A DNA stretch of 64,000 nt from Bacteroidota bacterium (GTDB lineage: Bacteria > Bacteroidota > Bacteroidia > Bacteroidales > F082): assembly GCA_018336075.1 (NCBI GenBank), contig JAGXRB010000261.1:221-64220 (forward strand). The letters run 5' to 3'. Both the position numbers and the translations under genes were made by a program. Of the stretch, positions 2,409-63,833 are shown in pieces; positions within the stretch are counted from its first letter, which is position 1; each line of letters starts with the position of its first letter. The notes under the pieces were generated by a model. That model made no database searches, had not been told where the DNA came from, and was given only the letters and a program-made list of their open reading frames with translations.

Positions 2409-4031
2409 ATGAAAAACATCCTTTCCAAATCGTTTTTTTCACCTTGGGTAATTTCTGTACTCATTATAACCTTGCTGATTTCCATGCCTGTTCTGGTTAT
2501 ATTTAGCGGTTTATGGCAAGATGCAGGGATTTTTTGGATGCATATTCGTACCGAACTAGTCCCCGAATACATTAAAAACACTCTGATTCTGGCAATAGGA
2601 GTTTCAACTATCAGTTTGATTTTTGGAGTTAATCTGGCTTGGTTTATCAGTAATTTTGATTTTCCGGGAAGAAACTTTTTCAGTTGGGCATTGATAATGC
2701 CTATCGCAATTCCTGCTTATATCAGTGGATTTGCATGGGCCGGTATACTTGATTACACCTCTCCGGCCTACACTTTTTTGCGAAATACTTTTGGATGGAA
2801 CACCGGACAGTTTCTGTTTTTTGACATTTTAAGTATTTCAGGTGCAATTGTGATTTTTTCTTTTGCATTGTATCCCTACATTTATCTTATCGCAAAAGCA
2901 TATTTCGACAGGCAATCTGCAACAATGTTTGAGGCAAGCGCTTCGTTAGGACGTTCAAAAATTTACACCTATTTTAATCTTGCCTTGCCGATGGCACGTC
3001 CGGCAATTGCAGCTGGACTTTCGCTTGTTTTAATGGAAATACTGAATGATTATGGACTGGTGAAATACTTTGGAGTCGACACCTTTACAACGGGCATTTT
3101 CTCAGCATGGTTTGCTTTTGGAGATAAAAGTGCTGCAATGAAACTTGCTGTTTATCTGATGGTTTTCGTTCTTTTTTTACTGATTTTTGAGAAAATGCAA
3201 CGTCGGCGAATGCGCTATTCCGGAGTTTCTGAAGGTAAATTGATGTCAAGAATTAAAGTTCCAGGATTTGGCGGTTGGCTCATTTCTTTTTTCAGTGCAA
3301 TTCCATTTTTGATAGGTTTTGCATTTCCATTTCTTCAGTTGGTTTACTGGTCTTTTGATACCTGGGAACAATTTCTTTCTCAAGGTTTTATACGTTTGTT
3401 TGCAAACAGTTTTTTACTGGCTGCAATTTCTGCACTGATTGTAATGATTTCATCTGTTTTGATAATTTATACCTTGCGCTTATATAATTCCAGACGGTTG
3501 AAGGTGGTTTCAGTAATTTCGACACTAGGTTATGCACTTCCCGGCGCTGTAGTTGCTCTTGGACTTCTTGTAATTCTAACCTGGACCGAAAACTTTTTCA
3601 TCCGGCAATGGGGCTTAAAAATTGTAATTACAGGCACCTGGTTTGGATTAATCTACGCTTATCTCGTTCGTTTTATGGCTGTTGGATACCAGAGTGTTGA
3701 AAGTGGAAGTGAGAAAATTTCAAAAAGCATCGATCAAGCGGCTTTATCACTTGGTGCAGGAAAATTCCGAAACCTATGGTTTAACAGTTTACCATTGCTT
3801 CGTGCGTCCATAGTTTCAGGATTTTTACTTGTAATGATCGATGTGCTCAAAGAGTTGCCTCTGACACTTTTGTTGAGGCCATTTAATTTTGACACACTTG
3901 CCATCAGGGCATTTGAATATGCTTCTGATGAGCGTGTTTCAGAGGCAGCGCCGGCGGCTGTCATGATTGTGTTAGCGGGCCTGGTACCGGTTTTGATCAT
4001 CAATCGTTTAATTGGGAGGAGAAAAGTATGA
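2409..4031 (+). CDS. Iron ABC transporter permease (fused double permease, FbpB-like)
   Basis: 540 aa, polytopic, with two BPD-transporter-like halves. It lies between the binding protein and the ATPase and overlaps the next gene by 4 bp. Confidence 0.85.
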   Translation: MKNILSKSFFSPWVISVLIITLLISMPVLVIFSGLWQDAGIFWMHIRTELVPEYIKNTLILAIGVSTISLIFGVNLAWFISNFDFPGRNFFSWALIMPIAIPAYISGFAWAGILDYTSPAYTFLRNTFGWNTGQFLFFDILSISGAIVIFSFALYPYIYLIAKAYFDRQSATMFEASASLGRSKIYTYFNLALPMARPAIAAGLSLVLMEILNDYGLVKYFGVDTFTTGIFSAWFAFGDKSAAMKLAVYLMVFVLFLLIFEKMQRRRMRYSGVSEGKLMSRIKVPGFGGWLISFFSAIPFLIGFAFPFLQLVYWSFDTWEQFLSQGFIRLFANSFLLAAISALIVMISSVLIIYTLRLYNSRRLKVVSVISTLGYALPGAVVALGLLVILTWTENFFIRQWGLKIVITGTWFGLIYAYLVRFMAVGYQSVESGSEKISKSIDQAALSLGAGKFRNLWFNSLPLLRASIVSGFLLVMIDVLKELPLTLLLRPFNFDTLAIRAFEYASDERVSEAAPAAVMIVLAGLVPVLIINRLIGRRKV

Positions 4032-9888: not shown

Positions 9889-9983
9889 CCTGAGATATGT
9901 GTTTTTGGCAAGTGGTTAATTTTGAAGAATTAGCTTCAATATTTAGATTTTAAACTCTCAAACGAATGGATTCGAAAGATATT

Positions 9984-10022
9984 GCAAAACAATCCGGCAA
10001 CACTTAAGTTACCGGATTGTTT
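9984..10022 (-). terminator. Rho-independent terminator of rnpB
   Basis: The AAAACAATCCGG / CCGGATTGTTT stem is followed on the minus strand by a T-rich run. It starts immediately after the P1 3' strand. Confidence 0.6.
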
Positions 10023-26057: not shown

Positions 26058-28154
26058 TTAGCCATTCATAGATATCAGAAACTCCTGATTTGTCAAGGTG
26101 TATCTCATTTTATCTTTAAGGAATTCCATGGCTTCAATCGGAGTCATGTCAGCAAGGTGATTTCTCAAAATCCAAACGCGCTGCATGGTTTCTTTGTCTA
26201 ACAATAAGTCTTCACGGCGTGTGCTGGAAGCAACGATATCTATAGCAGGCCAGATGCGTTTATTTGACAAGCGTCTGTCGAGCTGTAGTTCCATATTGCC
26301 AGTACCTTTAAATTCTTCAAAGATAACTTCGTCCATTTTTGAGCCTGTATCGATGAGTGCAGTTGCAATAATGGTTAGTGATCCACCATTTTCTATTTTG
26401 CGTGCTGCTCCAAAAAATCTTTTTGGTTTTTGAAGGGCATTTGCTTCCACACCACCCGAAAGTACTTTTCCAGAAGCTGGAGACACTGTGTTGTAAGCTC
26501 TTGCAAGACGTGTAATTGAGTCAAGTAAAATTACCACATCGTGTCCGCATTCGGTAAGACGTTTGGCTTTTTCAAGAACGATATTTGCAATTTTCACATG
26601 TTTGTCGGCAGGCTCATCAAAAGTTGATGATATAACTTCTGCTCTGACACTTCTTGCCATATCGGTCACCTCTTCAGGACGTTCATCTATAAGCAAAACT
26701 ATCAGGTAAACTTCCGGATGATTTTTCGCAATAGCGTTGGCAACTTCTTTTAAGAGAACTGTTTTACCAGTTTTTGGTTGTGCCACAATTAATCCACGCT
26801 GACCTTTGCCAATAGGAGCAAAAAGATCCATAATGCGCGTTGACATTGTGTTTTCAGCATGTCCCGTGATATTGAATTTTTCTTCAGGAAATAGTGGAGT
26901 CAGAAAGTCAAATGGAATACGGTCCCTTACTTCTTCAGGTAATCTGCCGTTAATTAAATCCACTTTTATCAAAGGAAAGTATTTTTCACCTTCTCTTGGT
27001 GGTCTGATGGTGCCTTTGATAGTATCACCGGTTTTGAGACCAAATAACTTTATCTGCGATTGAGATACATAAATATCGTCAGGTGAGTTCAAATAATTAT
27101 AGTCAGAAGACCTCAGGAAGCCATATCCATCGGGCATGATTTCCAAAACACCTTCTGCATTTACAATGCCATCGAATTCAAATGTGTATTCTTCTCTTTT
27201 TGATTTTTGAGCAAATTCTCTATGAGGTTGTTCCCGCCTCTGAGGCTGATGTTGAGGCTGGTCTGCTTGTTTTTCTATAACAGCTTCACCTTCAGACGGT
27301 TTTTGTGCGTCGGAATTAAATCTATCCTCATTTTGTTTTACATCTTCTTTCTGATGAGGATTTCTTGTATTTTGTGGGAGGTTACCTTTTTGTGGCTGTC
27401 CGGAATTTTTTTGAGAATCATTCTCTCTTACAGGCTGACTTTCTTTTGAGTCAGATTGATTTTCCCTTTGACCCTGATTAAAACTCTGTTTTGGTAAATC
27501 TCTTCTGTTTTGGTCTTTTCTTGTCTCATCCCTGCGTGGATCTTCTCTTCTAGTCTCATCCCTGCGCGGCTCTTCTCTTCTGACATCTTCTCTTTTGACT
27601 TCAACCCTGCGTGGATCTTCCCTTCTGATATCTTCTCTTTTAGCCTCATCTCTGCGTGGCTCTTCTCTTCTTGTTTCCTCTCTTCGTTGCTCGTTTCGTT
27701 GAGGAAAATTGCTTTTTGTTTCTCCCTGACGTATTTCAGTTTTGGGTTGTTTGTCTGAATTTAACGAAGAAATGCTTTCATCTTCCAAAAGGGTCAATTT
27801 TAATGTTACAGCCTCTTTTTCTTTTGGTTTTTCGATTTCACTTTCTTGCTTCTTTTGTACTGGCGGCACTTTTAGAGCTTCAGGAAGGGGTCTTTTTTCT
27901 TCATTCTTGTCGGCAGGATTGCCGGAACGTCTGTTTTCAGGAGTTTTTTTGATTCTGGCGCGCTTATTTTGTCTGGCAATTTCTTGTTCTGCTGCTGTCG
28001 CCTCTTCCGATTGAGGCAATAATGCCTGCTGGTCAAGAATCTGATAAATTAAATCCTGTTTTAGAAGTTTTTCCACCTTGGGAACGTTCAGTTCCTTTGC
28101 AATTTCCCTTAGCTCACTTACAAGCTTACTATTAAGCTCAACAATATCATACAT
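26058..28154 (-). CDS. rho: Transcription termination factor Rho with a large N-terminal insertion domain
   Basis: 698 aa. The N-terminus has a Rho_N helix bundle and the C-terminal ~370 aa are canonical (CSD-like RNA-binding domain, Walker A PKTGKT, RecA fold). About 275 aa of R/E/D/Q/K-rich low-complexity sequence sits between them. Confidence 0.95.
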
Positions 28155-37498: not shown

Positions 37499-39658
37499 CT
37501 AATGCTGAATTATTATCTTCTGGGTATTTTTGGTTTTATCGGATGAAATAGTCAGGAAATAAACGCCATTTGGCAAGTCAGCTGTAGAGATTCTGTATTC
37601 CTTCAATGATTCAGCATTAACAGTTCTTGTTAGCATTGGTAAATTTAGCCTGTTAAATAGTTGAACTGTATATGTTTCGTTAGCTTTTTCGTCAAATTTA
37701 ACAGTGAAATAATCATTGGCCGGATTTGGATAAATAGTGAAAGTAAGCGGAAGGTCGGTGATGGTGAAGTAGTTGCTACTTAAATCTTGAATTGTCCCGG
37801 ATACTGAACTAAATACTCTGATTTTGTATTTTGAACTAGTTGGATAGGTACTCAGTACATTCCAGACAGTAGTAGTTCCGACAACACCCGATTCTATAGT
37901 AAAAGTCTGTGTATGAACATTAAAGTCGTCGTATCTGTATAATTCGATATTTACTGGTTCAAGAACATTATCAATCCATGAAATAAGGTAAGGAATTCCT
38001 TTGTATAGTGTTTCGCCACCATTTGGTTGATGGATATCAATTGTGCCACCTTCGGTGTCAACAAGAGAGAAATGGTTTGCGCTAGAACCCACTATTGTAT
38101 TGTTGCTTCCCCAAACGTTTATCTTGTATTGTGTTCCAAGAGGGAAAGTTGTTTCGGGTATCGGCCAAACCCACGTTGAACCTTCAGCTCCAGTTTTAAT
38201 CATATGAAAAGTTGGAGTTGTAACACCGTAATTGGCTAATTCAATATTAAACGGACCCGGAATAGTTGGGTTCCATGATATTAGATGAGAAGTACCTCTA
38301 AGCCATTTGATATTAGCAACGCTTGGCTGAAGAACTTCAATAGAACCTCCTGCTGGAAAGTCAGCTAATGCGAAGTTGTGTGTACTTGAGCCTACAATTG
38401 TATTATTTGAACCCCATACATTTATCTTGTATTGTGTCCCAGTTGGGAAAGTGTTTTCTGGAATTGACCAAACCCATGTTGAACCTTCAGCTCCAGTTTT
38501 AATCATATTAAAAGTAGGAGTTGTAACACCATAATTGGCTAATTCGATATTAAATGGTCCAGGGATTGTCGGGTTCCAAGAAATAAGTTGAGATGTTCCT
38601 CTTAACCATGTAATTCCTTGTTCACTTGGTTGCATTACAGTAATGGTTCCACCTACCGGATAATCTGCAAGTGCAAAATAGTTTTGACTTGAACCGTGAA
38701 TAGTGTTGCCATTTCCCCAAACAATAATTTTATACTTACTTCCAGTTGGGAAAGTGTTTTCTGGAATCGACCATACCCATGTTGAACCTTCAGCTCCGGT
38801 TTTAATCATGTGATAAGTATGATTGTTAGGATTAGGATCATTCATATTAGCTAACTCAATATTAAAAGGACCAGGAACAGTTGGATTCCAAGAAATGAGA
38901 TAAGAAGATCCTCTTAACCATGATATATTTAATGCGCTTGGCTGCAGAACGTTAATTGAACCTCCAGGTGCATGAGCAGCAATAGTAAATTCGTTGACAC
39001 TTTGACTAACAAGCGAATTGTTAGCACCTCCCCAAACATTGATTTTATATTGACTGCCAACTTGTAGATCTGAAGGTATAGACCAAGCCCATGTAGAACC
39101 AGTTACATTGCTTGCCAGTGTTGTGAAAGTTGGAGTTGTAACACCATAATTTGCCAATTCAATAAGGAAAGGTCCGGAGACATTGTGTGTCCATGAAATT
39201 AAATTTGTTGTTCCTCTAACCCAGGTGATGTTAGGAAGACTGGGTTGCTCAACCTTAATAAAGGATTCTGCAGCATTTAGTTTAATTTTAAAAAAGTTAT
39301 TGCTGGCATCAAAAAGGGTAGTATTTACTGTACTCCAAATATTAATTTTGAAATTATTTCCTTCAGGCACAGTATTTGGAATTGTCCAACTATATGTTGA
39401 ACCCTGAACTGATGGGGCAATTGTTGTAAAAGTTGGAGTTGTAACACCGTAATTAGCTAATTCAATTAATACGGGTTGTGTAAGATTGTCAGTCCAGGAA
39501 ATCAAGTAAGTTTGTCCGATAATCCATTCTATTCCTGCCTCGCTCGGTTGAATCACTTGAATATAAGGTGTCGGATGCTGAGCAAGAACATTCATGTTGA
39601 TTGTAATAAGTATTACAGCAATGAATGAAATAATCTTAAGGTGTAATAAATGTTTCAT
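37499..39658 (-). CDS. T9SS-secreted surface protein with six Ig-like repeats plus Por CTD (paralog of 32713-35451)
   Basis: 719 aa with the same repeat module. The last ~180 aa are roughly two-thirds identical by eye to those of the 912-aa protein. Confidence 0.75.
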   Translation of the reverse strand: MKHLLHLKIISFIAVILITINMNVLAQHPTPYIQVIQPSEAGIEWIIGQTYLISWTDNLTQPVLIELANYGVTTPTFTTIAPSVQGSTYSWTIPNTVPEGNNFKINIWSTVNTTLFDASNNFFKIKLNAAESFIKVEQPSLPNITWVRGTTNLISWTHNVSGPFLIELANYGVTTPTFTTLASNVTGSTWAWSIPSDLQVGSQYKINVWGGANNSLVSQSVNEFTIAAHAPGGSINVLQPSALNISWLRGSSYLISWNPTVPGPFNIELANMNDPNPNNHTYHMIKTGAEGSTWVWSIPENTFPTGSKYKIIVWGNGNTIHGSSQNYFALADYPVGGTITVMQPSEQGITWLRGTSQLISWNPTIPGPFNIELANYGVTTPTFNMIKTGAEGSTWVWSIPENTFPTGTQYKINVWGSNNTIVGSSTHNFALADFPAGGSIEVLQPSVANIKWLRGTSHLISWNPTIPGPFNIELANYGVTTPTFHMIKTGAEGSTWVWPIPETTFPLGTQYKINVWGSNNTIVGSSANHFSLVDTEGGTIDIHQPNGGETLYKGIPYLISWIDNVLEPVNIELYRYDDFNVHTQTFTIESGVVGTTTVWNVLSTYPTSSKYKIRVFSSVSGTIQDLSSNYFTITDLPLTFTIYPNPANDYFTVKFDEKANETYTVQLFNRLNLPMLTRTVNAESLKEYRISTADLPNGVYFLTISSDKTKNTQKIIIQH

Positions 39659-55768: not shown

Positions 55769-55782
55769 AGTGATCCGGACAG
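55769..55782. repeat. attL core: 14-bp direct repeat AGTGATCCGGACAG (displaced copy of the tRNA-Arg 3' end)
   Basis: Identical to 63758-63771. Confidence 0.85.
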
Positions 55783-55885
55783 TATCATAATAAATACACT
55801 TAACTTATTGATATACTGTTATTTTAGAAAAAAGTGGTATCACAAATGAACTTCGCAACATTTCTATAAATGACAGTATCACAAT
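55781..55885 (+). promoter_or_regulatory. Left-end cluster of putative integrase arm-type sites (GTATCA(C/T)AA)
   Basis: AGTATCATAA at 55781-55790, GGTATCACAAA at 55836-55846 and AGTATCACAAT at 55875-55885. All share one orientation with the right-end copies. Confidence 0.5.
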
Positions 55886-55902
55886 AGATTACACATAATT
55901 TC

Positions 55903-56397
55903 TTAAACTTTTGCAGTATCGCATAAATTGGCCTTATTCAAGGCATATTTAAGACTATTTGTCAAGTTTAAAATTGTTGCTGACTGCGATTTCAGTAATT
56001 CAATCAGTTCTTTTTCTCGTTCCGTCCAATTTTCATCTAGTTCCGATGAAAATACATTATTTGGAATGTCGGCTGAAATATGCAACCTCTTGTTCATTAG
56101 TGCATCAAATTGGTCAGGCATTTTATAGCCTTCCACGTCAATTTTATTCATTAGTTCATACTCCCTGATGTATGCCTGTATAACTTGTTCGGCTGCTGTC
56201 TCCTTCGTTTCGGCATAGAATTCATGAATTAATAAAGTTAATTCACAAAAGTGTGATCTGTTTTTTGAATCTGCAAGCATTTGCAATAATAGTGACATAG
56301 GTAACTTTACAAGTTCTTCCTTTGCTTTTTCAGGCTCCAGATTTAAATCCAGATTCCAGAATTGATCATACGCTTGATCTAATTTCGATTTTTCCAT
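55903..56397 (-). CDS. Hypothetical protein (island cargo, next to the array)
   Basis: 164-aa ORF, helical and acidic, with no family I recognise. A possible -7 box (plus strand CAAATGTA) lies at 56545-56552. Confidence 0.5.
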   Translation of the reverse strand: MEKSKLDQAYDQFWNLDLNLEPEKAKEELVKLPMSLLLQMLADSKNRSHFCELTLLIHEFYAETKETAAEQVIQAYIREYELMNKIDVEGYKMPDQFDALMNKRLHISADIPNNVFSSELDENWTEREKELIELLKSQSATILNLTNSLKYALNKANLCDTAKV

Positions 56398-56617
56398 GAT
56401 GTTTAGGTATTTGATAAAAGAAAATGCAGACCATCACCGCGTAACATTCTAGCAAGCATGAATGATGTAGTACTTTCAACTAATTGTGGTCTGCAAAGGT
56501 TTATCTTAACCATGCTTTTAGAAATATTAAAATGTTACGCACTGCAAATGTAAAAATATTCTTATTGCATTGTCAAGAAAAAAATGTGATACAAAAAAAG
56601 GTCTCCCTCTCGGAGGA

Positions 56618-57049
56618 GTTGTGCATGGCCTTAATTTTGGTGCAAGGCTCAACATGAAACTATAAAGGTTACGAGAGAATTTTGTTGTGCATGGCCTTAA
56701 TTTTGGTGCAAGGCTCAACAACCAGTCGAAATTTCGACCCGTTAACTTTGTTGTGCATGGCCTTAATTTTGGTGCAAGGCTCAACTAATTGGATGCTTCC
56801 TCGTGAGGAAGCAATGTTGTGCATGGCCTCAATTTTACTGTAAGGCTCAACACTGAGCCGAAATTTCGTCCCAGTAACATTGTTGTGCATGGTCTCAATT
56901 TTGCTGCAAGGCTCAATATATGTCCCTGAGTCGAGAATAAGGGAACTGTTGTGCATGGCCTCAATTTTGGTGCAAGGCTCAACATAAAGTCTCCCTCAAC
57001 TGAGGAGGACTTTGTTGTGCATGGCCTCAATATAGGTAAAGGAAATTTT
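56618..57049 (+). CRISPR. Cas-less CRISPR-like array: six good 36-bp repeats plus one half-degenerate repeat, with six 30-bp spacers
   Basis: Repeats of consensus GTTGTGCATGGCCTTAATTTTGGTGCAAGGCTCAAC start at 56618, 56684, 56750, 56816, 56882, 56948 and 57014, an exact 66-bp period. R1 to R3 are identical, R6 has 1 change, and R4 and R5 have 4 each. R7 matches only the first ~18 nt. Further decayed copies lie near 57060 and 57150. I infer the orientation from decay at the high-coordinate end. Confidence 0.65.
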
Positions 57050-57182
57050 TCCTAGACCTGTTTTACATGGCCATAATTCAAAGTCAATATGAGAAATCTA
57101 GCTCGAGTAAATGAATTGTAAATTTTGTGATGTGTAGCATCATTTCATTTAGAAAGGCTCTTACATGGCTTTATTTTAAGGC

Positions 57183-57214
57183 AAAAAAAAATCCGCTGAA
57201 ATTAATCAGCGGAT
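57183..57214 (-). terminator. Rho-independent terminator of the capsid operon
   Basis: ATCCGCTGA-aatta-TCAGCGGAT stem, followed on the minus strand by T8-9. It lies about 70 nt after the capsid stop. Confidence 0.75.
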
Positions 57215-57283
57215 CTTCTCACTTACCAAACGAGAAACTATAATTATCCCTAATTATAAAAAATGAAACAATGAAAAATCTCT

Positions 57284-58678
57284 TTATGCTGTATCTGGTT
57301 TCATGCCAGTAATTTTGGCGAAGTGACCCGGTTTCATCAATCCAATATCACCACGCCAAATGACGCGGATATATGTCTGATTCCGTTCAAATGCTTCACC
57401 TGATACACTGGATGCTTCCAATGTAACTGATTGACGTAAACCGATAACCACCTGTGAAAAATCCCCGATAATTCCGGAGCTTTCATTTTCTCCAACTCCC
57501 TGATTGGTCGGGAATGCTGTTGAATGTGTAAAGTTTACATCTTTCAAAAGTTCTGGCTTTGGAACAAATCCAAGATCGGTTGCCTGTGTCTGCAAAATAG
57601 CGAAATCACGCGGACTTAATGCCAGTAAATTTGCTGTTCCGCTGTTGTTGGCTACCTTTGTCCATGCAGAAACAACAGGTCTGTATGTGATGTAATCTGT
57701 TGAAAAATCTGTCATGGAGACTGATTCAACGCCCACCTGATTCATTATTCCTTTGGGCTCTGTTGTGCCTTGTCCCCAGATTGACAATCTGTCAAGCTCT
57801 GCGGCCAATGCTGCTGAAATCGCTGTATCAATCGCATTGGCTGCGTTTGGCGAATCTTGCAAAAGTTCATTGGAAATTTTAAGTAAACCACCAATTGTAA
57901 ACGAATTGAGCTCAACTCCATCAAATGTCATTCCATTATCACTGAACGCATCATTTTCGGCTTTTATCTCAATTGTTGGGTCTGTTGCAACTCTCGCTAG
58001 TGTGAGCTCTTTACCTTCCATGATAACCAATTGTGCACCACCACCAAATACAACTGATTTCGCACGACTTTTGTCAATCACTTGCGGAAACAATCTAACT
58101 GGAACCAATGTCCCGGTGCTAGTGGTGCTTAGTGCGGCTCTGGTCTCTGGTTCCACGCCTGCCCAATCTCCGGTAACAATACCGCGAATGATTTTCCCAA
58201 GTGTGCCGGAATTCGTTTTTTTATGTAAATCGCTGAAGTTATGCGAACGTTCCAAAACTTGTACAGGTTTTCCGGTTCTCCGGTCAATCCATTGTGATTC
58301 AGTTTCTGGATTTTTACCACCATATTGAGCTATAAAACTTTTTCCGGCCATTTCTAGTGCTCGTCTTTCGTCTTCTTCTAGCTCTTTAACTTTTATTGTC
58401 AGGTGATCGAATTCAGATTTCAGTCTGTCATATTCGACTGTTTCAGAATCTGTAAAATTACGTTTTTCTGCTTTTCGCTTTTGAATTAACAGATCCATTC
58501 TATCCCATGTTTGCGCCCTCAATTGCTTTGCTTCGTCTGAAGTTTCAATGTTAGCAATTATAGCGGGCACAATCAGTGCAAGTGATGTCAATGCTGAACC
58601 TTCAGCAAAAAAAGCGGCTGCCATTACTACCAAAAGTAGTGTTGCAAGTCCTAAAATGATTCTAAATGAAGTTTTCAT
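57284..58678 (-). CDS. Phage major capsid protein, HK97 family, with an N-terminal hydrophobic segment and a coiled-coil (scaffold-like) region
   Basis: ..KISNELLQDS.., ..AAELDRLSIWGQGTTEPKGI.. and the N-terminal ..NFTDSETVEYDRLKSEFDHLTIKVKELEE.. are hallmark HK97-MCP patterns. The track ORF starts at 58804 but overlaps the upstream gene, so I prefer the ATG at 58678 (MKTSFRII..). Confidence 0.85.
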   Translation of the reverse strand: MKTSFRIILGLATLLLVVMAAAFFAEGSALTSLALIVPAIIANIETSDEAKQLRAQTWDRMDLLIQKRKAEKRNFTDSETVEYDRLKSEFDHLTIKVKELEEDERRALEMAGKSFIAQYGGKNPETESQWIDRRTGKPVQVLERSHNFSDLHKKTNSGTLGKIIRGIVTGDWAGVEPETRAALSTTSTGTLVPVRLFPQVIDKSRAKSVVFGGGAQLVIMEGKELTLARVATDPTIEIKAENDAFSDNGMTFDGVELNSFTIGGLLKISNELLQDSPNAANAIDTAISAALAAELDRLSIWGQGTTEPKGIMNQVGVESVSMTDFSTDYITYRPVVSAWTKVANNSGTANLLALSPRDFAILQTQATDLGFVPKPELLKDVNFTHSTAFPTNQGVGENESSGIIGDFSQVVIGLRQSVTLEASSVSGEAFERNQTYIRVIWRGDIGLMKPGHFAKITGMKPDTA

Positions 58679-58697
58679 TTTCTTAGATTTAATTGAT

Positions 58698-59117
58698 TTA
58701 AAACTGGTTAACATATATTTGACGGAATAAATCTCCGGGAATGCGCACAATGTTTTTGATATTTTCAGTGTTGGGTTCCCCTGCGAAGACTGTTGTGTCT
58801 TCAAAAAATAGTCTGACTGAATCGAAAGTTATATCAACCCACAATAATTTGCGGATGTCGGTTTCTGGATTGCCGTCCGGCCTGTGACTTCTCAAATGTT
58901 GGGTGAGTGTGTCAAGAATCTCAATTGTTTCAAATCGCAACCCCTTTTTCATTTCGCTTTCACTACCGATGGGAGCGATGGCCGAGAAATACAATAAAGC
59001 TGCTGTATTGTAAGCACTGCTTTTTGATTTTGCAATCAGATCAATTTTTGATAGGAACGCCTGAACCTGATCAACACTTTCAAAGTGATTTTTCAGTAGG
59101 ATGATATTTTTTTCCAT
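58698..59117 (-). CDS. Hypothetical protein (first gene of the capsid operon)
   Basis: ORF 58698-59135. The -7 box overlaps the first codons, so I prefer the start MEKNIILL at 59117. No recognisable family. Confidence 0.5.
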   Translation of the reverse strand: MEKNIILLKNHFESVDQVQAFLSKIDLIAKSKSSAYNTAALLYFSAIAPIGSESEMKKGLRFETIEILDTLTQHLRSHRPDGNPETDIRKLLWVDITFDSVRLFFEDTTVFAGEPNTENIKNIVRIPGDLFRQIYVNQF

Positions 59118-59132
59118 GACTTCAATTTTTGG

Positions 59133-59140
59133 CAAAGCTA
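59133..59140 (-). promoter_or_regulatory. -7 box TAGCTTTG for the 145-aa/capsid operon
   Basis: The plus strand reads CAAAGCTA. Confidence 0.4.
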
Positions 59141-59180
59141 TGTCAGGAAAAAAAAAGTAGGTATAACAATGTTATACTTT

Positions 59181-59609
59181 TTAGGCTAAATTTTTTAATT
59201 CATAACTGTGTCGACTATTCCAACTGATATAATCAGTGTATTTACTTTTTTTGAAATGCAATCTATAAATGCTATCCAGATAGTAGAATGCATCAACTTT
59301 TTTCATTCCTTTTTCACGGAGCAAATTGATATAAGTTCCCCAGTTCAATGAGCTTTCATTTAATGAAATTAAAATATCCGGGACATATGTTTCTCCGGCT
59401 TCTTTTAAATTTTGTAGTTCTGATAAAACTTCCTCTTCTGCTTCTGATAAATTACTCAAAATTGCATATGCGTACACATGGCTAGGCGAACGCTTAGTGC
59501 TGGAAAGGTTGTCAGGATTGACCCTCCCCCCCCTTATTGGGCTCTTTTTAGCTTTTAATGTGCTGTCTTTCAATTTCTTAGGTGCTTTTGTTTGTATGTT
59601 TGTTTCCAT
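59181..59609 (-). CDS. Hypothetical basic protein containing a G8 homopolymer tract
   Basis: 142-aa ORF with a K/R-rich N-terminus. A C8 run on the plus strand at 59526-59533 lies in codons for ..IRGGRV... Confidence 0.5.
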   Translation of the reverse strand: METNIQTKAPKKLKDSTLKAKKSPIRGGRVNPDNLSSTKRSPSHVYAYAILSNLSEAEEEVLSELQNLKEAGETYVPDILISLNESSLNWGTYINLLREKGMKKVDAFYYLDSIYRLHFKKSKYTDYISWNSRHSYELKNLA

Positions 59610-59668
59610 TGTCTTGTTAATAGGTTGATTTATAATAATTTGGCAATTTTTTATTCTATGAACTAATG

Positions 59669-60622
59669 TTATGATAGGTTATGAACTTCAAGTAAATTCG
59701 ATAAAACTGATTCTATTTTGGAGCTTTTAAGATACTCGTCTTCTGAATGAGTTAAATATAGTTTAGTGATGTTCGGGCTGGTATGCCGGAGAAACAACTG
59801 GACTTTAAAAATGTCATTTGTGGCTTTCAGTGCTGCGATTGCTGCGCCATGTCTTAAGCTGTGCGCACTTATTTTTGGATGCTTCAATCCTGCTGACTTC
59901 AATCTGTTGTTAACTATGTTCCCAATCTCTGGTGCTGACAATGCTTTTGCTTCTCCGTCCCTTATCCAATGACTTCTAAACAATGGCTCCGATGGGTTCA
60001 ATGTTTCATCTTTGCCAATTGTTAAACGCCTGGTCTCAATCAATTCTTTCAACGCCTGGTCAATGCTATCGGATATGGTGACGGCCTCCTTCACTTGCTG
60101 ACCTTTGCCGAGTATGTAAAGTAATGGCCGGCCTGACCTGTCAGTCTGAAAATCTGAAATCCTTAACCTTGAAACTTCAATGGCTCGTAATCCATTTTCA
60201 AACATCAATTGAATAATAACTTTATCTCTGGTTCCGGCAAATGTACTTCCATCAATTGACCTGATTAGCTGTGATACTTCTTCTGGTTTCAATGGGAGTT
60301 TGCTATATTGCTTTGGAATTTTGACGGGCCGGATGCCTGCTGTGATGTTTTTATAAATGTCATTCGCTTCCGTCCATTTGTAAAATCCTTTCACTCCCGA
60401 CAAATAACTATTGGCGGTGTAAATGCTTTTTTTGCTGATAAGAAATTCTTTAAATCTAATGATGTCGCGTTCGTTCGGAGTGCTGGCTGGCCGTCCAACA
60501 ATCACCAGATATTTGAAAAATTGGTGTAATGCATTCTCAATTGCCTTGCGGCTTTTGTCGTTAATGTCCTTTTGATCTGTGAAATCAGAAATTAACTGTG
60601 TGATCGTTCGGGCTGAATTCAT
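59669..60622 (-). CDS. Tyrosine recombinase, XerC/XerD-like (phage integrase family)
   Basis: 317 aa with an N-terminal SAM-like domain. The catalytic region reads ..GLRAIEVSRL.. (Arg I), ..HSLRHGAAIA.. (H-x-x-R) and ..LRHTSPNITKLYL (His/Tyr). Confidence 0.85.
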   Translation of the reverse strand: MNSARTITQLISDFTDQKDINDKSRKAIENALHQFFKYLVIVGRPASTPNERDIIRFKEFLISKKSIYTANSYLSGVKGFYKWTEANDIYKNITAGIRPVKIPKQYSKLPLKPEEVSQLIRSIDGSTFAGTRDKVIIQLMFENGLRAIEVSRLRISDFQTDRSGRPLLYILGKGQQVKEAVTISDSIDQALKELIETRRLTIGKDETLNPSEPLFRSHWIRDGEAKALSAPEIGNIVNNRLKSAGLKHPKISAHSLRHGAAIAALKATNDIFKVQLFLRHTSPNITKLYLTHSEDEYLKSSKIESVLSNLLEVHNLS

Positions 60623-61185
60623 TGTGTTAATGCTTTGGTGTTATCATAAGAAGTTGTCAAAAGTTTTATGTTCGTATCTGGATAGTATTTTTCTGAATTC
60701 AATTTCTTGAATTTTTCTTCAAAATCGATTTTGGAAAAATAAATATCAGAACGATTACAATATCTTTCCAAATAATCAAATACTTCATCAAGTGGATTTA
60801 CTAAACCTGCAAATTTTCTGTGCGTTTTTTTTCTTTCAAATGGTTTTACCATGTCATTAAACCATTTAAGATTGATCTGTTGTCCATAAAGTTTTTCATC
60901 AAAATTATGTTGGCCATTTATTACTTTCAGTAATGCCTTCTCATAATTATCAACTGTGATATGTCCAATTGTTTTTTTCAGGTTTGATAAGAAAAAACTT
61001 CTTGCTGGAAAATCTTTTGTGTCGGTCGGAATGTTTGATGCTCCCCAGCCCATTAAAATTGCTGTTTTTGAAATCATTTTTGCAAAATCTCCGTTTGAAA
61101 TTTCGGCAATTGTGGTCGGAAAAATTATTTTTCCCGGAATGCTTTTAATAGGCCACTCAATGTAAGGTTTAATTTCTTGTTCCAT
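60619..61185 (-). CDS. Hypothetical protein
   Basis: 188-aa ORF that overlaps the recombinase gene by 4 bp (translational coupling). No recognisable family. Confidence 0.5.
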   Translation of the reverse strand: MEQEIKPYIEWPIKSIPGKIIFPTTIAEISNGDFAKMISKTAILMGWGASNIPTDTKDFPARSFFLSNLKKTIGHITVDNYEKALLKVINGQHNFDEKLYGQQINLKWFNDMVKPFERKKTHRKFAGLVNPLDEVFDYLERYCNRSDIYFSKIDFEEKFKKLNSEKYYPDTNIKLLTTSYDNTKALTQ

Positions 61186-61196
61186 ATTGAAAGAAT

Positions 61197-61913
61197 TTAA
61201 AATGATTTTGAAAATTCTTCTTGCGCTTTATGATTAGCTTCCTGTTTCGATTTTGCCGCGATGTATGAATTTTTTGGAGTAGTAAGGCTTTTAGTATAGT
61301 TTTCGATTTTATTTTTATCTGTAAACCATATTTTTCTCATTTTAAGTTTCCAGTTTTTAACTGGATTATCTTTACTATCAATCCAATTACGATCGTTATA
61401 CCAATCATAAGCGATTTTTGCAGCTTCTTCATGATATCCATTATCAAGAAAAAATTTAATAACTTCAGAAAATTGCGGAGCTACTAGAATAGAATTATTA
61501 TTACTTGTATCATTCAAAATACTTGTACTATTATCCTCGAAGTTTTTTTCTATACCCCCCCCGAAATTTTTTTCTATACCCCCCTCGAAGTTTTTTTCTA
61601 TACCCCTCCCGAAGTTTTTTTCTATACCCCCCTCAGTTAAATAGATATTTCTTCTTGCGATTACCTTGCTGTTGTTCTGATATTCATTTTCTGTTTCGAT
61701 GTAACCATACTTCACTAATTGAGCTATCCAGTTAGTGATGCTTCGCTCGCTTACGTTGTAAAGTTTTGCGAAATACTTATTTGATGCAAAACACCTTTTT
61801 TCTTTATTTGATAGTGCTGTGATCTCTCCGTAAAAAAGTTTGACGTTCGGAGTTAAATTTTCATCATAGCGAACTTTTGCCGGGATGATGGCATAATAAT
61901 TTGGACTTTCCAT
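61197..61913 (-). CDS. HTH-domain replication-organiser-like protein (DnaD/phage Rep N-terminal type) with an internal GGIEKNF x4 repeat
   Basis: The N-terminus YYAIIPAKVRYDENLTPNVKLFYGEITALSNKEKRCFASNKYFAKLYNVSERSITNWIAQLVKYGYI resembles winged-HTH phage/plasmid replication proteins. The functional assignment is inferential. Confidence 0.55.
   Translation of the reverse strand: MESPNYYAIIPAKVRYDENLTPNVKLFYGEITALSNKEKRCFASNKYFAKLYNVSERSITNWIAQLVKYGYIETENEYQNNSKVIARRNIYLTEGGIEKNFGRGIEKNFEGGIEKNFGGGIEKNFEDNSTSILNDTSNNNSILVAPQFSEVIKFFLDNGYHEEAAKIAYDWYNDRNWIDSKDNPVKNWKLKMRKIWFTDKNKIENYTKSLTTPKNSYIAAKSKQEANHKAQEEFSKSF
61537..61632. repeat. Four tandem 24-bp direct repeats (candidate iterons/origin) inside the rep-like gene
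   Basis: The four 24-bp units are 61537-61560, 61561-61584, 61585-61608 and 61609-61632. Consensus (T/C)CGAAGTTTTTTTCTATACCCCCC, with 1 to 2 changes per unit. Confidence 0.8.
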
Positions 61914-61980
61914 ATCTTTGATTTTTGATTTTTGAATTATACCCGATGCATGACTAAATGCACCGGGTTTTTTATTCTCC

Positions 61981-62160
61981 TTAAAGCAAGTTCATCTTTT
62001 CTGCTTTCTTTTTCCAGAAACGTTCTCTGATTGCTTTTACCTTTTCAGGATTTTTTTCACGCCATTCTTTATTGTACGCACGTTGTACTTTTTTTACCAA
62101 CGCATCAATGGTTTCAGCGTCCATCTCTTTTTTCTTCTTGAATTTCTTAAAAATGTCCAT
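61981..62160 (-). CDS. Small basic hypothetical protein (59 aa; below the ORF-track cutoff)
   Basis: My translation reads MDIFKKFKKKKEMDAETIDALVKKVQRAYNKEWREKNPEKVKAIRERFWKKKAEKMNLL. It sits at the head of the rep operon. Whether it is coding is uncertain. Confidence 0.35.
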   Translation of the reverse strand: MDIFKKFKKKKEMDAETIDALVKKVQRAYNKEWREKNPEKVKAIRERFWKKKAEKMNLL

Positions 62161-62347
62161 CTTATTAGGTTTTTTGGGTTAATAAATCAATGTAAGAGTA
62201 AACAATCGTTTTTGTTTTGTCAAGGTGACAATGTCCGGAATCGTATACATTTATTTTGTTCTAACTCAATACTGATAAGGCTTTCAGCGTTGTTGAAAAG
62301 TGTTGATAACTTTTGTTTTGTCCCCTCGAAAATGGCAATTTTGGAGC

Positions 62348-62385
62348 AAAAAAAAATCCCATTGGGACGCCAATGGGATTTTTTA
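62348..62385 (-). terminator. Rho-independent terminator after the integrase gene
   Basis: AATCCCATTGG-gacg-CCAATGGGATT stem, with a T-run on the minus strand (A9 on the plus strand). Confidence 0.75.
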
Positions 62386-62409
62386 AACTTAGTTAAATTC
62401 TGAGTGAGC

Positions 62410-63558
62410 TCAGATTTTTGTAATACCCAATCGGTCGTAATCGTTGCTTATTTTTGAAGATAACATTTGAGCATATATCCGGGTCGTTTTTACACTGGCA
62501 TGGCCTAGTGTATGACTTACCGTCTCCAATGGCAATCCAGCGTTTAGCATTTGAGTTGCGAATGTGTGCCTTGCAAGGTGCGTTGTCAATGTTTTTGGGA
62601 TGTCGCAAATGATTTCAAGCTCCTTTAGAAAGGCATTCATTTTTTGATTAGAAATTATGTTAAAGACCTTTGAATTGTTGTCCCTGTACTTTTCAATAAT
62701 TTGCAGTGCTTCTTCCAGAAGTGGAACCATTGTTTTTTCTTGCGTTTTTTCTCGTGATCTTATAATGAAAGGTCTGCCGTCAATATTTCTTATTTCATCT
62801 CTTTTCAAGTTTAACAAATCACCGAAAGCCAATCCGCTGTTAATTTGAAATATGAACATGTCGCGGACTTGCTCCAGTCTTTGAATTCCTTTGTAATCTC
62901 GTAAACGTTGGATTTCATCAACTGTTAGAAAATCAATGTTACTTTTTGCTTTTGGTAGCTTAAAATTGTCATAAGGTGTTTTTTTAATCATATCAGTATT
63001 AACAGCCCTGCGCAAATATTTTATAAGTACCTTATGATTTTTCAGCGTTGTACTTGCTTTCATTGTCTTTAATAAATGAGAATGAAATCGATGTAAGTAG
63101 TTAAGGTTGAAATCTTGAATTTTTACATGCTTGTCGAATGCTTCAAAATTATTCAAAACAGAGTTAACAGCTCTTATCTGTCCGGCTCCTAGCGTTGGTT
63201 TATCAATCTCAAATTGCTGTCTCATATATTCGGCCAATGATGTGTTACGGCCTAGCTGGTCTCCGTCCATAAATAATTTTAAACTTTCCGGAGACGGTGT
63301 TATCTGGTAGCGGAAACAATCCAGATTGAATTCTTCAATTTTTCGGAGCTCTGCTTCAATCATAAAATTGTATTGAATAGCTCTGTTGTGTTGACGTGTA
63401 ACGCGTTTTTTCTTATCGTCCCAGTGCTCTTTTTCTATTTTAAATGGGAGGTTTCTCCATATCCTGGTATTACGATCAAAATAGATTTCAATACTAACCG
63501 GAGCAGATTTTCCGCTGATTGCTGTTTTTTTTCTGTCATAAATTACTTTACTTTCCAT
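62410..63558 (-). CDS. int: Site-specific tyrosine integrase (Bacteroidota type with an N-terminal arm-binding domain)
   Basis: The C-terminus reads ..HLARHTFATQMLNAGLPLETVSHTLGHASVKTTRIYA (H-x-x-R ... H ... Y). The track ORF starts at 63591. I prefer MESKVIYDRKK at 63558 because a -7 box lies at 63579-63586. Confidence 0.9.
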   Translation of the reverse strand: MESKVIYDRKKTAISGKSAPVSIEIYFDRNTRIWRNLPFKIEKEHWDDKKKRVTRQHNRAIQYNFMIEAELRKIEEFNLDCFRYQITPSPESLKLFMDGDQLGRNTSLAEYMRQQFEIDKPTLGAGQIRAVNSVLNNFEAFDKHVKIQDFNLNYLHRFHSHLLKTMKASTTLKNHKVLIKYLRRAVNTDMIKKTPYDNFKLPKAKSNIDFLTVDEIQRLRDYKGIQRLEQVRDMFIFQINSGLAFGDLLNLKRDEIRNIDGRPFIIRSREKTQEKTMVPLLEEALQIIEKYRDNNSKVFNIISNQKMNAFLKELEIICDIPKTLTTHLARHTFATQMLNAGLPLETVSHTLGHASVKTTRIYAQMLSSKISNDYDRLGITKI

Positions 63559-63571
63559 GCTTTTATTGTTT

Positions 63572-63625
63572 GGTATCACAAAACTAGTCAAAATTAAAGA
63601 AAAGTATCACAAAAAGTATCACAAA
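63572..63625 (+). promoter_or_regulatory. Right-end cluster of putative arm-type sites (GTATCACAAA x3) overlapping the integrase promoter
   Basis: GGTATCACAAA at 63572-63582, AGTATCACAAA at 63603-63613 and AGTATCACAAA at 63615-63625. A -7 box (plus strand CAAAACTA, i.e. TAGTTTTG) lies at 63579-63586. Confidence 0.5.
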
Positions 63626-63729
63626 TTTTACAAATTGGTTTGTTTTTTTTCAGGTTACACCATAATGTAAAATAACACTAGAAGTGGTGTTTTGTAGTAC
63701 GGGCGCGGGTTTCAGTAAATTTTAGGCAT

Positions 63730-63753
63730 AAAAAAACCCCTCGTGTGAGGGGT
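63730..63753 (-). terminator. Island-borne terminator now serving tRNA-Arg
   Basis: ACCCCTC-gtgt-GAGGGGT stem, followed on the minus strand by T7. It begins about 7 nt after the tRNA 3' end and lies inside the element. Confidence 0.65.
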
Positions 63754-63757
63754 TGTC

Positions 63758-63771
63758 AGTGATCCGGACAG
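63758..63771. repeat. attR core: 14-bp direct repeat AGTGATCCGGACAG overlapping the tRNA-Arg 3' end
   Basis: Identical to 55769-55782. Confidence 0.85.
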
Positions 63772-63833
63772 GATTCGAACCTGTGGCCCGCAGCTTAGAA
63801 GGCTGCTGCTCTATCCAACTGAGCTACCGGACC
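63760..63833 (-). tRNA. tRNA-Arg (anticodon UCU)
   Basis: I folded the 74-nt cloverleaf by hand. Acceptor GGTCCGG/CCGGATC, D arm GCTC..GAGC, anticodon arm GCAGC-CTTCTAA-GCTGC, T arm ACAGG-TTCGAAT-CCTGT, discriminator A. CCA is not encoded. Confidence 0.92.

Follow-up and report, generated by a model that had tools for sequence, protein, structure and literature searches.

A CRISPR array without cas genes on a small capsid-encoding, satellite-like island in a Bacteroidota bacterium

The 64-kb window described here is the whole of the analysed stretch of DNA (64,000 nucleotides of contig JAGXRB010000261.1, from a Bacteroidota bacterium), and it contains one CRISPR array located within an island of ~8.0 kb (55769-63771) at a tRNA-Arg gene. 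No further CRISPR-like arrays are present elsewhere in the 64 kb. The array is composed of six 36-bp repeats (R1-R6; consensus GTTGTGCATGGCCTYAATTTTGGTGCAAGGCTCAAC), six spacers (sp1-sp6) and a truncated seventh repeat (R7), with a period of exactly 66 bp and a spacer length of exactly 30 bp in all six cases (Table 1). Mismatches to the consensus number 0, 0, 0, 3, 3 and 0 in R1 to R6 respectively, and by chance no such repeat would be expected, as 100 shuffles gave 0 matches. The locus therefore has the constant-length direct repeats and the unique spacers of near-constant length that are generally used to recognise CRISPR arrays. The repeat has GTTG/CAAC termini and a U-rich loop, and can be drawn as an imperfect hairpin closed by GUUG/CAAC, the predicted energy of which (-9 kcal/mol, RNAfold) is not better than that of shuffled sequences (z = -0.8). 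An earlier note on this DNA had described six repeats of this sequence, ends and loop with a 66-bp period and 30-bp spacers, and the coordinates and shuffles bear this out; of the degenerate copies it listed, the half-degenerate repeat stands (R7, 18 nt), whereas the remnants further out lie off the 66-bp period. A protein-coding tandem repeat is ruled out, as the array is crossed only by three short overlapping open reading frames (ORFs) in different frames.

The array is polarised. R1, R2 and R3 are identical in sequence, position 15 is T in R1-R3 and C in R4-R7, and the truncated R7 lies at the far end. Identical first repeats together with a truncated last repeat are the pattern expected of leader-end acquisition, and because of this polarity the 56618 side is taken as the leader. 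A second assembly of the same organism, from the European Nucleotide Archive (L007), shows 0 mismatches to the window over 7,251 + 9,466 nt (16.7 kb) and lacks exactly 132 bp, corresponding to R1-sp1-R2-sp2; a Joint Genome Institute (JGI) assembly (L113) has the six-unit form. The two extra units are new sequence and not copies of other units, and the difference lies at the end with the identical repeats, opposite R7. Variation is thus found in a polarised form, with a unit difference specific to one end and a degenerate repeat (57014) at the other.

Two of the spacers match phage genes. Spacers sp2 and sp4 are identical at 22/30 positions, in register, and a degenerate pattern made from the two matched one viral contig (L013/L014), in a gene assigned to PHROG 63 'anti-repressor Ant' (4e-42); homologues of this antirepressor were then gathered by protein similarity. 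With Rha-family genes on viral or metagenomic contigs, sp2 agrees at 26/30 positions in L014 and in L117 and at 25/30 in L118; for sp4, L020 and L022 each give 24/30, a run of 18 consecutive bases included. All of these matches share one codon offset in the rha/ant genes. L020, L022, L117 and L118 were retrieved through protein homology and not through spacer DNA, L117 and L118 solely by peptide. The best of 360 shuffled spacers over 344 kb of independent loci reached 22/30, such that sp2 and sp4, at 24-26/30 and in register, lie above all 360 shuffles, as expected of spacers of foreign origin. Read as its reverse complement, sp2 encodes KVNGSKFRLV, a peptide that many Rha proteins share at 9/10 residues (e.g. 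KVNGSNFRLV, KVNESKFRLV and KVNGSKFGLV) and that is close to the family consensus (profile search, 889 Rha-family proteins, PF09669); the positions at which sp2 and sp4 differ fall at the variable residues of the family. By sequence comparison, both spacers trace to one conserved site of phage rha/ant antirepressor genes. This site is itself palindromic, with arms that co-vary among homologues (AGGGAAAATTTTCCCT, AAGGAAAATTTTCCTT and CCGAAATTTCGG). A reading of the likeness between sp2 and sp4 as compensatory hairpin changes was dropped, the palindrome corresponding to the rha codons S/T-K-F-R. In L014, a 68-kb viral contig, the rha gene has an in-frame TAG (~9970-10000) upstream of MEPSWEKV, at a position (HKHVM*AIRIM) where homologues carry K, E or Q; either this rha is a pseudogene or the phage uses TAG recoding.

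A 14-bp core (AGTGATCCGGACAG) is present as an exact copy at either end of the island, all genes of which are on the minus strand. From the tRNA gene, the order is integrase, a 59-aa ORF, replication initiator, the 188-aa gene, Xer-like recombinase, the 142-aa and 139-aa genes and capsid, followed by a terminator, the array, terminator T2, a promoter, a structured 5' untranslated region (UTR) and the 164-aa gene (Table 1). Five 24-bp iterons (CGAAGTTTTTTTCTATACCCCCCC) at 61511-61654, within the replication initiator gene, are probably the replication origin of the island; they form a separate set, and replication-origin iterons are ruled out as the explanation of the array. GTATCAC-containing motifs are found just inside both island ends (55778-55795, 55872-55889 and 63595-63629), and are probably arm-type binding sites of the integrase. 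The capsid protein is identical to MBS4061160.1, from a 557-kb contig of a 'Bacteroidetes bacterium' metagenome-assembled genome (MAG), and is at most 29% identical to the capsid of any cultured phage. Its N-terminus (58600-58678) is hydrophobic and signal- or transmembrane-like (MKTSFRIILGLATLLLVVMAAAFFA), a feature that is unusual in a major capsid protein and is kept in homologues P0002-P0006. Searches of the island proteins against Pfam and PHROG gave no terminase, portal or tail genes, PADLOC gave no match for any of them, and the 139-aa and 142-aa proteins are without a match in any of the three.

Table 1. Coordinates of the array, its flanking elements and the genes of the island, given as window positions
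Feature	Position	Strand	Remarks
CRISPR array	56618-57031	+ (strand of repeat as first noted)	R1-R6, sp1-sp6, truncated R7
36-bp repeats R1-R6	starts 56618, 56684, 56750, 56816, 56882, 56948		
30-bp spacers sp1-sp6	starts 56654, 56720, 56786, 56852, 56918, 56984		
R7, truncated repeat	57014-57031		first 18 nt of the repeat only
Leader-side flank	56440-56617	.	adjoins the end where units are gained or lost
Terminator T2	56618-56590 (hairpin 56603-56618 plus T7 run)	-	directly after R1
Structured 5' UTR of 164-aa gene	56398-56545	-	conserved; L006 7228-7402, L009 3812-3975, L112 100-255
164-aa gene	55903-56397	-	island gene between attL and the array
attL	55769-55782	+	exact second copy of the 14-bp core
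Palindrome, 26 bp, AGGTCTAGGAAAAATTTCCTTTACCT	57034-57059	-	'spacer slot' between truncated R7 and the remnant repeat
Decayed repeat remnant	57060-57095	+	~20/36 identical by eye; 13-nt match 57066-57078; off the 66-bp period
Weaker repeat remnant	near 57157-57186		
Terminator-like hairpin, ATCCGCTGA/TCAGCGGAT plus T9 run	57186-57215	-	just downstream of the capsid gene; read by eye
HK97-fold major capsid protein	57284-58678	-	464 aa; PF05065 5e-24; PHROG 10 major head protein 1e-39
139-aa gene	58698-59117	-	unknown function
142-aa gene	59181-59609	-	unknown function
Second tyrosine recombinase, Xer-like	59669-60622	-	317 aa; PF00589 8.5e-20; PHROG 1 integrase 6.5e-32
188-aa protein	60619-61185	-	unknown function; conserved in L006
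Replication initiator	61197-61913	-	238 aa; PHROG replication initiation families, 1e-22
Integrase	62410-63558	-	382 aa; tyrosine recombinase with arm-DNA-binding domain; PF00589, PF13102, PF17293
tRNA-Arg(TCT)	63758-63833	-	3' end holds attR, 63758-63771, core AGTGATCCGGACAG

The island is therefore a small integrative element with an integrase, att sites and a replication module of its own, and lacks most virion genes. Judged on its sequence it resembles a phage satellite, and we infer that it is mobile, dependent on a helper and packaged. The earlier note had placed the array inside a small, att-bounded mobile element, in agreement with the core copies and the gene content, and next to attL, which does not hold, as the 164-aa gene with its promoter and 5' UTR lies in between. 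Elsewhere in the window the large ORFs encode type IX secretion system (T9SS) cargo, a tetratricopeptide repeat (TPR) protein, Rho, GlgB, a MurC-like protein and transporters. Two further sets of tandem repeats are present there, one of 303 bp (2.6 copies; 38142-38922) inside the gene of a T9SS-sorted protein, and one of 30/45 bp (27514-27692) inside the insertion region of rho.

Related islands are few, and show that the slot holding the array is variable. The viral contig collection contains no member of the family, no excised or encapsidated form of the island was seen, and homologues of the capsid are few and on short contigs. In sister island L006 the capsid is 53% identical to that in the window and the gene order is unchanged; the att core flanks it on both sides, its chromosomal neighbour is shared, and it lies at the orthologous site. 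It has no array, and the capsid terminator runs straight to the promoter; as such, the array occupies a variable cargo slot of the satellite-like island. The order of the 139-aa and 142-aa genes is kept in L006, L009 and L011. L112 encodes a 164-aa protein 79% identical to that of the island and matches its promoter and UTR over ~150 nt, and it keeps only half a repeat. The 36-bp repeat (56618-56653) can itself be read as two direct halves of ~18 nt each (GTTGTGCATGGCCTCAAT and TTTGGTGCAAGGCTCAAC), one of which corresponds to the truncated R7 and likewise to the solitary copy in L112. In L009 (3608-3800) and L011 (3143-3239) the slot that follows the palindrome is taken up by a 74-aa ORF and by a highly structured region of ~190 nt with two copies of ATCCATTTTTGGATTG and several palindromes. 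No Rfam family matches this region, which may represent either an array built on another repeat and since decayed, or a non-coding RNA.

The flanks of the array contain several conserved elements. On the leader side a promoter (TTGACA-N18-TACATTTG, 56576 to 56547, minus strand) is directed away from the array and is conserved in L006 and L112. In the 5' UTR that follows it, compensatory changes are found in 9/26 predicted pairs (only three sequences), and the element could be either a small RNA or a 5' UTR with a regulatory role. It was also considered as a relative of the repeat and rejected, the direct similarity being weak. On the other side, the hairpin downstream of the capsid gene is absent from the terminator-prediction list and was read directly from the sequence. 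The 26-bp palindrome beyond R7 is made up of 10-bp inverted arms around AAAATT, a form like that of a tyrosine-recombinase core site and also like that of the rha palindrome. It recurs in the array-less islands L009-L011 with 0 mismatches to a 24-nt pattern in which 22 positions are specified, and scores 21/30 against the phage rha sites, where the background maximum is 20 in 63 kb. L009 contains a copy at 3583-3608 and two further degenerate ones (3661-3691 and 3716-3745); its sequence AAAGTAGGTCAGCCGAATATTCGGCTGAGC also scores 21/30 against the rha sites, in the same orientation, and the T2 hairpin of L112 (GCCGAAAATTCGGC) scores 20/30. These palindromes of the window and of the sister islands may be ancestral trailer-end spacers of the island family, or binding sites.

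The transcribed strand bears on the type of the array. Type VI-B arrays of Bacteroidota have 36-nt repeats with 5'-GUUG/CAAC-3' ends and a run of U in the loop, and 30-nt spacers (bioRxiv 10.1101/092577), and all of these features are present here on the plus strand; they are also common to some II-C arrays (PMC8092290), consistent with the earlier note, which had recognised that a 36/30 geometry occurs among the latter. The repeat is 19/36 identical to that of PspCas13b, a value reached by 11% of shuffles with fixed ends. On the plus strand, R1-R3 contain TAATTTTG, which matches TAnnTTTG, a motif that we take to be the Bacteroidetes -7 consensus. In this orientation CRISPR RNAs (crRNAs) with sp2 and sp4 would be antisense to the rha mRNA, and sp6 would precede the truncated 3' repeat.

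For transcription of the minus strand, the array is bracketed by a promoter-like site at 57122 to 57095 and by terminator T2. Transcription in this direction would meet the truncated repeat first, which would keep an extraneous crRNA from being made, and would proceed towards the leader, as reported for the II-C array of Flavobacterium columnare (PMC8092290). The gene-sense flanks 3' of the protospacer are N5-TAAA (L020), N5-CAAA (L118), N5-CAAG (L117) and N5-TCTC (L014), taken from four distinct nearest homologues, none of which is the true protospacer. In three of the four the flank is of N5-YAAR type, close to the N5-TAAA motif of F. columnare, and as in that species it faces the leader. 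Both this flank and the arrangement of promoter-like site and terminator are at least as compatible with a II-C-type array as with a VI-B one. The adaptation module is likely of II-C type, and for the effector II-C and VI-B are about equally likely, each at a little under even odds. Of the VI-B style proposed in the earlier note the generic repeat features remain; the assignment itself is not established, given the low identity to the PspCas13b repeat, the II-C-like flanks and the missing leader hairpin described below.

We interpret the locus as a true CRISPR array of the orphan (Cas-less) kind that rides as accessory cargo on a capsid-encoding, satellite-like island of ~8 kb and is served in trans by the CRISPR-associated (Cas) proteins of the host, and give this reading a probability of about 0.7. 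On this interpretation, Cas1-Cas2 of the host, probably of type II-C, would insert new spacers at the 56618 end, and a host effector would process and use the transcripts, this being Cas9 (II-C) if the minus strand is transcribed and Cas13b (VI-B) if it is the plus strand. The crRNAs would target phages encoding Rha/Ant regulators, together with other targets, and the island would act as a portable immune memory against phages that threaten the host, or that compete with or help the island; crRNAs that protect the host would thereby protect the island. Expression, processing and interference are all predicted from sequence. The suggestion that the element may borrow a host effector finds one of its premises in place, namely spacers that point at phages. 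That the array is a real CRISPR rather than a structural tandem repeat, as the earlier note had proposed, is supported by two phage-derived spacers and by spacer content that differs between near-identical genomes.

Several observations weigh against this interpretation. The 64-kb window contains no cas gene, anti-repeat or defence protein. Pfam, ORF and PADLOC scans agree with the earlier note that cas genes are lacking in the window, and none is found in the 4.7 kb past its right end; neither cas13b nor csx27 or csx28 adjoins the array, the largest ORFs being those of T9SS/TPR proteins and Rho, and PADLOC is blank for the island proteins. A cas9 gene is likewise not present in the window, and an island-encoded trans-activating crRNA (tracrRNA) was not found: in an anti-repeat search of the 64 kb the best duplex outside the array has -35 kcal/mol, against -69 for a perfect one, and lies in the RNase P RNA or murC.

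None of the viral, genome and metagenome collections searched contained the repeat, nor did PLSDB, INPHARED or the full texts of papers, and the repeat thus led to no cognate Cas locus. The strict repeat pattern gave 0 matches in viral contigs and 0 in a JGI metagenome scan, a 21-mer of the repeat gave five single matches in GTDB genomes (all in coding regions, about the number expected by chance), and an 11-mer present twice at CRISPR spacing gave 83 loci in metagenomes, none related beyond the seed. Only chance matches were obtained in PLSDB, INPHARED and the paper texts, and no Rfam family matches the repeat, CRISPR-DR families included. Spacers sp1, sp3, sp5 and sp6 are without a match, having no exact cores in viral contigs and only INPHARED matches with E >= 0.6, in phages of unrelated hosts. 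Matches of sp1 and sp3 in L025 were taken as chance, as their 22/30 equals the null maximum and stops occur in every frame checked. There is no convincing plus-strand promoter in the leader, and a hairpin between leader and first repeat is not predicted, with only 2 nt of R1 pairing with the leader, no better than with scrambled leaders; such a hairpin is present in many VI-B arrays (PMC13187072).

The lack of a partner also bears on the possibility that the array is a fossil: a real orphan array, brought in with the island or built in an earlier host, that is no longer extended or used. The two-unit difference could then be a deletion between the identical R1 and R3 and not an acquisition, and the identity of R1, R2 and R3 would ease such a deletion by recombination. 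The trailer side has decayed, L112 looks like a collapsed array with half a repeat left, no cas gene lies within the 64 kb, and the repeat is found nowhere else. The last of these says little, however, since the collections searched for the repeat do not contain the host genome. Six repeats are also intact, three of them identical, and zero single-nucleotide polymorphisms in 16.7 kb accompany the two-unit difference; moreover, the target site of sp4 recurs in sp2 in a variant form, a picture suggestive of re-acquisition in an arms race. We consider a fossil array unlikely.

The structure of the spacers raises a different objection, namely that the array is not CRISPR at all and consists of tandem hairpins or palindromes, for example protein-binding sites that mimic the rha palindrome or terminator-like RNA hairpins, whose number changes by recombination. 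Four of the six spacers (sp2, sp3, sp4 and sp6) are unusually self-complementary, at or below the 1.4th percentile of background 30-mers on the minus strand, with sp3 and sp6 at the 0.1-0.2 percentile on both strands. The sequence beside R1 (T2 hairpin, 56590-56618) resembles sp6 (GTCTCCCTC...GAGGAGGA), which is not expected if protospacers are random; the strong hairpins of four spacers and the sp6-like terminator are together unexpected for randomly sampled protospacers. The target site in rha is a conserved palindrome, and the 26-bp palindrome of the island, the L009 copy at 3716-3745 and the L112 hairpin score 20-21/30 against the rha sites. Against this, sp1 has no hairpin, the two extra units are new sequence and not copies, and sp2 matches coding sequence over all 30 nt, non-palindromic flanks included, encoding a near-consensus peptide. 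The exact 36/30 geometry and the duplicated leader-end repeat are also the signature of integration by Cas1-Cas2, and an array of this non-CRISPR kind is very improbable. Least probable of all is a decoy, the alternative raised in the earlier note, in which repeat units of the island titrate the host effector to protect the island or a helper phage: the array does sit on a mobile element, RNA anti-CRISPRs (Racrs) are repeat mimics of mobile elements without cas genes (PMC10651486), and over-expressed extra crRNA can sequester Cas13b (PMC13187072), but Racrs are solitary repeat units or very short arrays where six full units are present here, and a decoy needs neither the phage-derived sp2 and sp4 nor an end-specific change in units.

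An extension of the orphan-array interpretation is possible but doubtful, namely that a family of capsid-encoding mini-islands is in a lasting CRISPR partnership against one palindromic rha/ant site of temperate phages. It is raised because of the shared target of sp2 and sp4, the 26-bp palindrome in the trailer slot, and the similar palindromes in L009 and L112; on this reading the palindromes of L009, L112 and the trailer are fossil or live spacers against the same rha site. The satellite would use a host effector, possibly Cas13b acting on rha mRNA, against helper or rival phages, which would be sensed, restrained or excluded. Its origin may even lie on the island backbone, with the 18-nt half repeat as the seed of a de novo array.

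The array and the island share features with several known systems. The repeat and spacer geometry is that of the VI-B arrays of Bacteroidota, which differ in that neither cas13b, csx27 nor csx28 is present here within 64 kb and identity to the PspCas13b repeat is at the level of shuffles; VI-B loci are without cas1 and cas2 (bioRxiv 10.1101/092577), and in F. columnare a Cas-less VI-B array is filled in trans by Cas1-Cas2 of another locus (PMC8092290). The II-C array of the same species is similar in having 36-bp repeats and 30-bp spacers, the end of the spacer on the side of the protospacer-adjacent motif (PAM) facing the leader, a flank of N5-TAAA type in three of the four nearest phage homologues, and, if the minus strand is transcribed, a unit that runs towards the leader up to a terminator (PMC8092290). 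Unlike it, the window has no cas9, cas1, cas2 or tracrRNA anti-repeat, the minus-strand repeat is without a -7 box, and the array is on a mobile island and not beside cas genes.

Orphan and mini arrays are known on viruses, prophages and plasmids (PMC11656645; for plasmids, PMC9071438), and the present array resembles them in being without cas genes, on a mobile element, presumably dependent on host Cas proteins, and in having spacers aimed at other mobile elements. It differs in its carrier, an island of ~8 kb that encodes a capsid, lacks terminase, portal and tail genes and resides in a Bacteroidota MAG, and in having six units and apparently growing. The island itself is like phage-inducible chromosomal islands (PICIs), P4 and marine virion-encapsidated integrative mobile elements (VEIMEs) in its small size, integrase at a tRNA att site, iteron-bearing replication initiator, capsid-related gene and variable accessory slot. 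Some VEIMEs have been reported with CRISPR-Cas genes (bioRxiv 10.1101/2022.07.26.501625), whereas the cargo here is the array alone; most VEIMEs also have no capsid gene. Racrs are similar in that RNA genes resembling repeats are found on a mobile element that has no cas genes (PMC10651486), and the array departs from them in its full-length spacers, two of them of phage origin, and in its variable number of units, none of which is solitary.

The class to which this locus belongs is thus already known, both as orphan arrays on mobile elements and as satellites that carry defence systems. What is new is the carrier, a minimal capsid-encoding island of Bacteroidota, as are the antirepressor target and the evidence that a Cas-less array is still changing. 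If the interpretation is true, a minimal satellite-like island holds adaptive immune memory without the immune machinery, in an array that is updated by Cas1-Cas2 of the host and moves with the island. Strains with a common Cas system could then pass sets of spacers horizontally to one another, and the satellite would gain a programmable means of acting on phages.

It would also be a natural case in Bacteroidota of a Cas-less array extended in trans; to our knowledge such extension has been shown experimentally only in a few systems, e.g. from II-C to VI-B in F. columnare. The conserved palindromic antirepressor target and the palindromes that recur in the sister islands bear on the interaction between satellites and phages in Bacteroidota.

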